Shown here one piece after another: positions 29,437 to 30,487 of a stretch of DNA of 64,000 nucleotides; positions within the stretch are counted from its first letter, which is position 1; each line of letters starts with the position of its first letter. The DNA comes from Escherichia phage HX01. Both the position numbers and the translations under genes were made by a program. The stretch is taken from sequence record NC_018855.1, one strand, 5' to 3'. The notes under the pieces are model-generated. The model did no database searches, was not told the origin of the DNA, and saw only the letters and a program-made list of their open reading frames with translations.

Positions 29437-29667
29437 ATGTCTACTGAAACTATCGAAAAACTGCAGTCTGAAATCGTTACTCTGAAATCTCGCATTCTTG
29501 ATACTCAAGACCAAGCAGCTGCTATCCAGCAAGAATCTCAACAACTTGGTAGTGCTCTTGCTAAAATCGCTAATCTGGTTGGTATCACTGGCGAATCAGT
29601 TAAGATTGATGACCTGGTAGAAGCAGTACGTGAACTTGTTGAAACTGAAACTGCAGAAGAAGAATAA
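29437..29667 (+). CDS. 57A: Tail fibre assembly chaperone gp57A
   Basis: 76 aa, [17 protein letters not shown] motif as in T4 57A. Confidence 0.8.
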
Positions 29668-30122
29668 TGAAATTTGAGGACTTTTCACAAGGCCTCTACG
29701 TCGCAGCTAAATTTTCGGAATTAACACTTGATGCGCTGGAAGACCTCCAGCGTAAATTAAGAATTCCTAATCCAGTACCACGTGAAAAGCTTCATTCAAC
29801 AATTTGTTATTCACGTGTAAACATACCATATACTACGTCTAGTGGTAGTTATTCTATTGCCGAATCAGGACACTTTGAGGTATGGAAAACTGACGACGGC
29901 GCTGTACTGGTTTTAGTTCTTGATTCCGAATATCTTAGATGTCGTCATCAGTATGCACGAGCTTTAGGTGCTACTCATGATTTCGACGACTACACTCCAC
30001 ATATAACGTTATCATATAACGTTGGCCAACTATCATTCAGTGGTGATGTAGCTATTCCGGTTATTCTCGACCGTGAATACAAAGAACCCTTAAAACTAGA
30101 TTGGGCCGAAGATCTAAAATAA
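29667..30122 (+). CDS. 57B: gp57B, Acb1-like 2H phosphoesterase (anti-CBASS nuclease family)
   Basis: 151 aa with two H-x-T motifs (LHSTI, PHITL); position after 57A as in T4. Confidence 0.7.
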
Positions 30123-30135
30123 TTTTCACAAAACA

Positions 30136-30166
30136 GTTTACATAAGGATGATGGTGTGTTACTATC
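30136..30166 (+). promoter_or_regulatory. T4-type early promoter with stem-loop upstream of ipI
   Basis: GTTTAC -35, TACTAT -10, flanked by inverted repeat AGGATGAT/ATCATCCT. Confidence 0.55.
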
Positions 30167-30199
30167 ATCCTATCAAATAAACAACCTCAAGGAAATAAA

Positions 30200-30487
30200 A
30201 TGAAAACCTATAAAGAATTTATATCACCTGTTGCTAACGTTTCTACTCTGACTGAAGCAACCCTTACTTCCGAAGTTATTAAAGCAAACAAAGGCCGTGA
30301 GGGTAAACCAATGATTAGTCTAGCTGACGGCGAAGAAGTAAAAGGTACTGTTTACTTAGGAGACGGGTGGTCCGCTAAGAAAGATGGCGCTACTATTGTT
30401 ATCTCTCCGGCTGAAGAGACTGCACTGTTTAAAGCTAAGCACATTTCTGTAGCTCAGCTTAAAATTATTGCAAAAACTCTTCTGTAA
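30200..30487 (+). CDS. ipI: Internal protein I-like (capsid-targeted)
   Basis: 95 aa, N-terminal MKTYKEFI capsid-targeting-like sequence; position after 57B. Confidence 0.7.
   Translation: MKTYKEFISPVANVSTLTEATLTSEVIKANKGREGKPMISLADGEEVKGTVYLGDGWSAKKDGATIVISPAEETALFKAKHISVAQLKIIAKTLL

Follow-up and report, generated by a model that had tools for sequence, protein, structure and literature searches.

Two adjacent genes of Escherichia phage HX01, at 29667-30487 of the stretch of DNA analysed here (64,000 nucleotides of NC_018855.1, referred to below as the window), have been described as anti-defence genes: a gene 57B related to the T4 anti-CBASS nuclease Acb1, followed by a gene for an internal protein I (IPI) with a divergent N-terminus. 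This raises the question of whether the two genes form a pair peculiar to HX01, with an IPI that is processed in its own way, or whether they are what other T-even phages carry at the same place. The answer is that both genes are ordinary, already known T4-type copies, which were correctly named but for one of which the wrong conclusion was drawn about processing. We put the probability at about 93 % that the interval contains the orthologues of T4 57B (acb1) and ipI in a Mosigvirus of the RB69/JS09 type, with the roles, processing and gene organization set out below.

Gene order and relatives of the locus

There are only two long open reading frames on the + strand of the interval, 29667-30122 (151 aa) and 30200-30487 (95 aa), and the coordinates first given for them are exact. 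The first is gene 57B, or acb1 (29667..30122, + strand), whose product is a predicted anti-CBASS cyclic-oligonucleotide nuclease of the 2H phosphoesterase type, assigned from Pfam, PDB and the alignment with T4. Gene 57A (29437..29667, + strand) encodes a tail-fibre assembly chaperone of 76 aa (Pfam GP57, E=6.9e-23; PHROG tail fiber chaperone, E=1.4e-25) and has gene 1, which encodes dNMP kinase, upstream of it (28698-29432). The TAA stop codon of 57A and the ATG of 57B share one base (TAATG; the junction reads GAATAATGAAA), and this overlap suggests translational coupling inside the 1-57A-57B block. In the T4 annotation, in contrast, the overlap is 4 nt.

The 3' neighbours of ipI are homologues of T4 trna.4, trna.3 and trna.2. 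For trna.4, whose homologue here (30559-30744, + strand) is predicted to be a small membrane protein, the most likely product has 61 aa and starts at the ATG after GGAGAAATAAA, in agreement with the JS09 annotation; the 68-aa open reading frame from 30538 in a mechanical listing is probably too long.

Over 29400-30800 the sequence has 100 % identity with two phages, Escherichia phage vB_EcoM_JS09 (Mosigvirus, RB69 group) and Shigella phage SSE1, in which the two genes are annotated as gp57B and IpI, and 287 more phage records match this region. Genes 57B and ipI are also adjacent in T4, RB69 (with one insert), dhabil, KM16, ECML-134 and UFV11, and these phages include Dhakavirus and Moonvirus relatives. 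Judged by these comparisons, the two genes lie side by side as in the usual T-even order, 1-57A-57B-ipI, and are not a special anti-defence pair of HX01. The two genes are not a single unit either, and ipI is a separate cassette.

The window as a whole cannot be equated with JS09. Between 38000 and 46000 it is only 95-97 % identical to the best records, in 3-5 pieces, and the positions of the head genes for gp68 and gp20 are offset by approximately 556 bp relative to JS09 (NC_024124.2). The piecewise matches and the shifted head genes indicate that the window comes from a mosaic Mosigvirus relative which, by alignment, is identical to JS09 over 29400-30800.

Immediately upstream of ipI, a motif scan found no late promoter of the canonical form (TATAAATA), and for this reason the timing of ipI expression is something that we infer. 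The nearest match to the T4 late-promoter consensus is inside gene 1 (29075..29082, + strand) and is a possible, weak source of late read-through transcripts over 57A-57B-ipI. There are 12 such motifs in the window against 8.5 expected, which is not above chance.

Identity of internal protein I

The 95-aa product of ipI consists of a capsid-targeting propeptide of 19 residues, MKTYKEFISPVANVSTLTE (30200..30256, + strand; from the T4 and RB69 IPI alignments), and a mature part, IPI*, of 76 aa (30257..30487 including the stop codon, + strand; from Pfam PF11634 and PDB 2JUB). Residues 20-95 match the Pfam family IPI_T4 (PF11634) over the entire profile (1-76 of 76; 166.7 bits against a cut-off of 25, E=1.1e-49) and the NMR structure of T4 IPI* (PDB 2JUB, 76 residues) from end to end (1-76; E=2.1e-41). 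IPI is 87 % identical to T4 IPI overall. In the mature part, 71 of 76 residues are identical to T4 IPI*, and the differences (window residue first) are A42V, V47I, V84A, Q86H and T93N. In the propeptide 7 of 19 residues differ (Y4F, I8T, P10T, V11T, A12T, N13P and L17I). Mature IPI* is predicted to have a mass of 8.0 kDa and a pI of 9.0. Every defining feature of IPI that can be read from a sequence is present in the 95-aa protein, and the PF11634 and 2JUB matches together with the N-terminal MKTYKEF bear out its description as an internal-protein-I-like, capsid-targeted protein.

Two ipI genes of other phages deserve comment. In RB69 (NC_004928.1, 10450-10749, - strand) ipI is annotated from a start four codons upstream (MEPKMKTYKEF...). 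This MEPK start is probably mis-called and the Met of MKTYKEF is likely to be the true start, since the start is placed there by the conserved AAAATG context as well as by aligning the protein with its counterparts in T4 and HX01. In Escherichia phage vB_EcoM-PM133 (Tequatrovirus, MZ234052.1) the ipI homologue (901-1188 of the extracted locus) carries no annotation and has an in-frame stop at codon 33 (ANK*REG). This stop may reflect an error of sequencing or a nonsense allele that arose in nature or in the laboratory.

Role of IPI in a phage of the RB69 type

Packaging into the virion, ejection with the DNA and inhibition of GmrSD of the CT596 type are established for T4 IPI and have been reported for RB69 IPI (PMC6024577, PMC12373910). 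By analogy, the 95-residue precursor would be carried into the scaffold core of the prohead by its N-terminal MKTYKEF... propeptide and gp21 would then cut after L17-T18-E19, leaving the basic 76-residue IPI*. IPI* would be packaged with the DNA, would be ejected with it and would block the restriction of sugar-modified hmC DNA by the type IV enzyme GmrSD of the CT596 type.

GmrSD cleaves RB69 DNA, and RB69 IPI, which is four residues from T4 IPI, prevents restriction (Thomas et al., PMC6024577). The same study counts JS09 with the phages for which arabinosyl-hmC is predicted, and notes that the GmrSD of UTI89 restricts RB69 but not T4 or DDY1 DNA, the cause of which it leaves open (PMC6024577). 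Phages of the RB69 type probably carry arabinosyl-hmC, not glucosyl-hmC, and the GmrSD-type enzymes that are relevant to them may therefore differ from those studied with T4. Additionally, a different range of targets could result from the five residues of mature IPI* that are not those of T4. It is conceivable, although we consider it unlikely, that the JS09-type allele of IPI* (A42, V47, V84, Q86, T93) has a GmrSD target range unlike that of T4, perhaps adapted to enzymes that attack arabinosyl-hmC DNA. If so, an allele-specific range would bear on why UTI89 GmrSD restricts RB69-type phages and not T4, as raised in PMC6024577.

The basic nature of IPI*, the approximately 360 copies of IPI in each T4 head (PMC9026906) and the prediction of ara-hmC rather than glc-hmC in JS09-type phages (PMC6024577) would also fit a protein that is mainly a DNA-associated structural or charge-neutralizing component of the head and that does nothing against restriction in a phage with arabinosyl-hmC. 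This is very improbable, since RB69 IPI does stop GmrSD restriction of RB69 (PMC6024577) and the IPI described here is RB69 IPI but for one conservative residue, A42 in place of V42. Additionally, T4 lacking its internal proteins grows on standard hosts (PMC9026906), as would hardly be expected if their structural role were essential. An injected inhibitor of GmrSD is the function that we favour for IPI of HX01.

Targeting peptide and processing site

The facts on processing used here come from PDB 2JUB and from two reviews (PMC3012670, PMC9026906). The gp21 protease recognizes the motif L/I-X-E and cuts after it; the propeptides of internal proteins are 10-19 residues long, and positions 4 and 7, the key positions of the targeting sequence, were defined on IPIII (PMC9026906). 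The gene for gp21 is at the start of the window, the edge of which cuts it so that the N-terminal 162 residues are present (1..489, - strand; Pfam Peptidase_S77, E=3.1e-89). It is next to gp68 (486-911), with the gp20 portal beyond (1147-2718). This gp21 is the expected processor of IPI.

The preliminary description noted that IPI has FISP instead of FIAE and took this as a sign of a different processing site. Residues 7-10 are indeed F-I-S-P, but T4 IPI, which begins MKTFKEFTSTTTPVSTITE and continues ATLTSEV across the junction, has F-T-S-T at these positions, and FIAE is absent from all six of the other IPI homologues that were aligned. FIAE is part of the IPII/IPIII type of capsid-targeting sequence (MKTYQEFIAE). 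It is seen, as FIAE or FITE, in other internal proteins, namely RB69p156 (MKTYQEFIAEA) and an IPII-like open reading frame at 42113-42415 (MKTYQEFITEA). The suggestion of a different site fails because the IPII/IPIII propeptide was ascribed to T4 IPI, which itself has no Glu at position 10.

The IPII-like internal protein just mentioned is encoded on the + strand and has 100 aa, with the targeting peptide MKTYQEFITE followed by Ala. There are early-promoter-like sites on both sides of its gene, at 42053-42082 before it and at 42418-42447 after it.

In the alignment of seven IPI homologues M1, K2, T3, E6 and F7 are invariant (the targeting start, of the pattern MKT[YF]xEF, is MKTYKEF in HX01), and hypervariability, with indels, is seen at residues 8-13. 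IPI contains just one L/I-x-E motif, L17-T18-E19, which is followed by A20 and corresponds to I17-T18-E19 and A20 of T4. The solved T4 IPI* (2JUB) begins at the aligned Ala20, and the junction, Ile or Leu followed by T-E and Ala, is kept in RB69, in T4, ECML-134 and UFV11 (the last three Tequatrovirus) and in Dhakavirus dhabil at 57 % identity. A cut at some site other than that of T4, giving a different mature N-terminus, might be argued from the 7 of 19 propeptide residues that are unlike T4 and from residues 8-13, which vary most within the family. However, the idea started from an FIAE that T4 IPI does not have, and the sole L/I-x-E, the N-terminus of the solved protein and the conserved junction all coincide at the T4 site, so that we regard another cut as scarcely credible. 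With one L/I-x-E motif, and that at the T4 junction, processing at the same junction to the same 76-residue mature IPI* is to be expected.

Gene 57B and the Acb1 nuclease

Activity-guided fractionation identified T4 gene 57B as the gene for Acb1, which degrades 3'3'-cGAMP, and deletion of 57B makes T4 sensitive to CBASS (Hobbs et al., 2022, PMC9117128). In T4 numbering, the catalytic tetrad HxT/HxT of Acb1 is H44, T46, H113 and T115; Y12, W74, F107 and W147 stack on the bases, E141 contacts the adenine N6 and there is a C-terminal lid (PMC9117128). The annotated T4 gp57B has one extra N-terminal Met relative to the 151-aa protein of HX01, so the equivalent residues are numbered one lower here.

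Over residues 8-149, gp57B matches the Pfam family Acb1 (PF23474) along the complete profile (1-144 of 144; 196.8 bits against a cut-off of 27, E=1.8e-58), and residues 9-148 (140 residues) align with Acb1 of Erwinia phage FBB1 (PDB 7T26, E=7.9e-59). The 2H phosphoesterase fold is assigned to gp57B through its homology in sequence to the solved 7T26. Matches as strong as these two, and those of IPI to IPI_T4 and 2JUB, are far outside what chance would give. The protein is 85 % identical to T4 gp57B (NP_049750.1) and 99 % identical to RB69 57B. H-x-[TS] motifs occur in it only twice, as H43-S-T45 and H112-I-T114, and these four residues occupy the tetrad columns of T4 Acb1 and are invariant relative to T4 and RB69. 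The residues that contact the bases are also kept, in invariant columns: Y11, W73, F106 and W146 for stacking and E140 for adenine. The C-terminal lid is at 144-151, and the C-terminus reads KLDWAEDLK here and KLDWADDLK in T4. Pfam, 7T26 and the T4 alignment thus agree with the first description of 57B as a 2H phosphoesterase of the Acb1 type with two H-x-T motifs, and the alignment check that it had proposed for the catalytic histidines finds H43 and H112 in the tetrad columns. All the defining features of Acb1 that lend themselves to comparison by alignment are found in gp57B.

By analogy with the work on T4 and FBB1, gp57B would be a small metal-independent 2H phosphoesterase. Its aromatic residues would clamp the cyclic di- and trinucleotides of CBASS, and the HxT/HxT tetrad would cut 3' of adenosine. 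Once the nucleotides had been cut in this way, the CBASS effectors would never be switched on.

A LigT-like RNA-repair enzyme (an RNA ligase or 2'-5' RNA ligase) instead of an anti-CBASS nuclease is what the name 'RNA ligase' in PHROG 755 and in the RefSeq records of JS09 and RB69, the 2H fold common to Acb1 and LigT-type families and a weak match to Pfam 2_5_RNA_ligase2 (E=0.012) would suggest, but we give this hardly any weight because that match, at 16.1 bits, is under its 27-bit cut-off whereas Acb1 scores over its whole profile, because the 85 % identical T4 protein is the cGAMP-degrading enzyme whose loss exposes T4 to CBASS, and because the ligand-specific residues (E140, the four aromatics and the lid) are all retained. 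We therefore reject the name 'RNA ligase' for gp57B as a legacy label from similarity at the level of the 2H superfamily, and retain Acb1. JS09, RB69 and their accessions do not appear in the part of the supplementary text of Hobbs et al. (2022) that was available.

Promoter/stem-loop elements and the ipI slot

The consensus of the promoter early stem-loop (PeSL) elements is TTTACW-N17-TAYWAT with AGNA-loop-TCNT (Comeau, 2014, PMC4122927). There is a PeSL-like element before ipI (30136..30171, + strand), with GTTTAC at 30136-30141, a spacer of 18 nt and TACTAT at 30160-30165. A 12-bp stem-loop at 30145-30171 (AGGA...TCCT) overlaps this promoter and has a fold of -16.8 kcal/mol (z=-3.4). The element matches the full PeSL consensus, is conserved in T4 and is identical in RB69. 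A second PeSL-like element is in the gap between ipI and trna.4 (30491..30530, + strand), with GTTTAC at 30491-30496, again 18 nt and TATAGT at 30515-30520, which is one mismatch from the consensus -10 (TAYWAT). Its 12-bp stem-loop is at 30501-30530 (-17.7 kcal/mol, z=-5.3), and there is a near-identical copy of this second element in RB69 between RB69p156 and ipI. In the annotation of phage SA79RD the upstream element is a T4-early-like promoter with a rho-independent terminator and the second element is a terminator. The ipI gene stands as an independent cassette between two PeSL-like elements.

Sites of the form GTTTAC-N18-TANNNT number 13 in the window, compared with an expectation of 1.1. 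They are all on the + strand and beyond 30.1 kb (30136-63218), downstream of 57B, and several have the core ATAGGRCTATGTTATAGT in common. This is consistent with a dispersed PeSL family that marks the hyperplastic early region.

The content of the ipI slot varies. In several other Mosigvirus records there are approximately 330 extra bases at the slot. In Salmonella phage KM16 (Moonvirus; 901-1819 of the extracted locus) three successive genes of the internal-protein type follow 57B, the first of them 34-38 % identical to IPI (pairwise versus tblastn), which is an expansion of the slot. The ipI slot is a known polymorphic slot for ip cassettes and is not peculiar to HX01.

Wider significance

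The practical gain is one of annotation, in that the gp57B called 'RNA ligase' in RefSeq and PHROG should be named Acb1 anti-CBASS nuclease. For phage therapy and the prediction of host range, Mosigvirus isolates would be expected to evade CBASS and GmrSD of the CT596 type, and their ipI slot can be regarded as a recombination-prone cassette site, the gene content of which varies among close relatives.

A homologue of vs.4 (43947-44360, + strand) has the Acb2/Tad1 hairpin domain PF24729 at residues 64-132 (E=1.6e-17); the protein probably starts further in, at an ATG near 44085-44115. If it is a cyclic-nucleotide sponge of the Acb2 type, HX01 has two proteins directed against CBASS, this sponge and the nuclease Acb1. 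HX01 appears to have the standard T-even counter-defence kit, with Acb1, an Acb2 candidate and two or more internal proteins that are injected.

Comparison with known systems

T4 Acb1 is matched in length to within one residue, in its position after 57A and in the tetrad, the aromatics, the Glu and the lid. There are 23 substitutions relative to T4 Acb1, none of which is at a named functional residue. Acb1 of FBB1 (7T26/7T27) is more distant than that of T4 and differs by an indel of one residue in the beta-hairpin that follows W73, but both HxT motifs are common to FBB1 and gp57B.

T4 IPI likewise has a 95-aa precursor, a 19-aa propeptide, a junction of Ile or Leu followed by T-E and Ala, and a mature part of 76 aa, as in HX01. 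The IPI of RB69 (NP_861845.1), which belongs to the same genus, Mosigvirus, has an identical propeptide and, apart from the difference at residue 42, an identical mature part (75 of 76). At the level of the locus RB69 is different, because it has an extra internal-head-protein gene between 57B and ipI, RB69p156, with a targeting peptide of the FIAE type, which is absent from HX01.

Finally, the ipI locus resembles the PeSL cassettes of T4-like phages (Arbiol, 2010, PMC2839356; PMC4122927). Here too, TTTACA-N17-TACTAT and TTTACA-N17-TATAGT each overlap an AGGA...TCCT stem-loop, the elements bracket a non-essential adaptive gene and the content of the slot varies between close relatives. For the ipI slot, a role of the PeSL elements in recombination is suggested by the comparison with RB69 alone.
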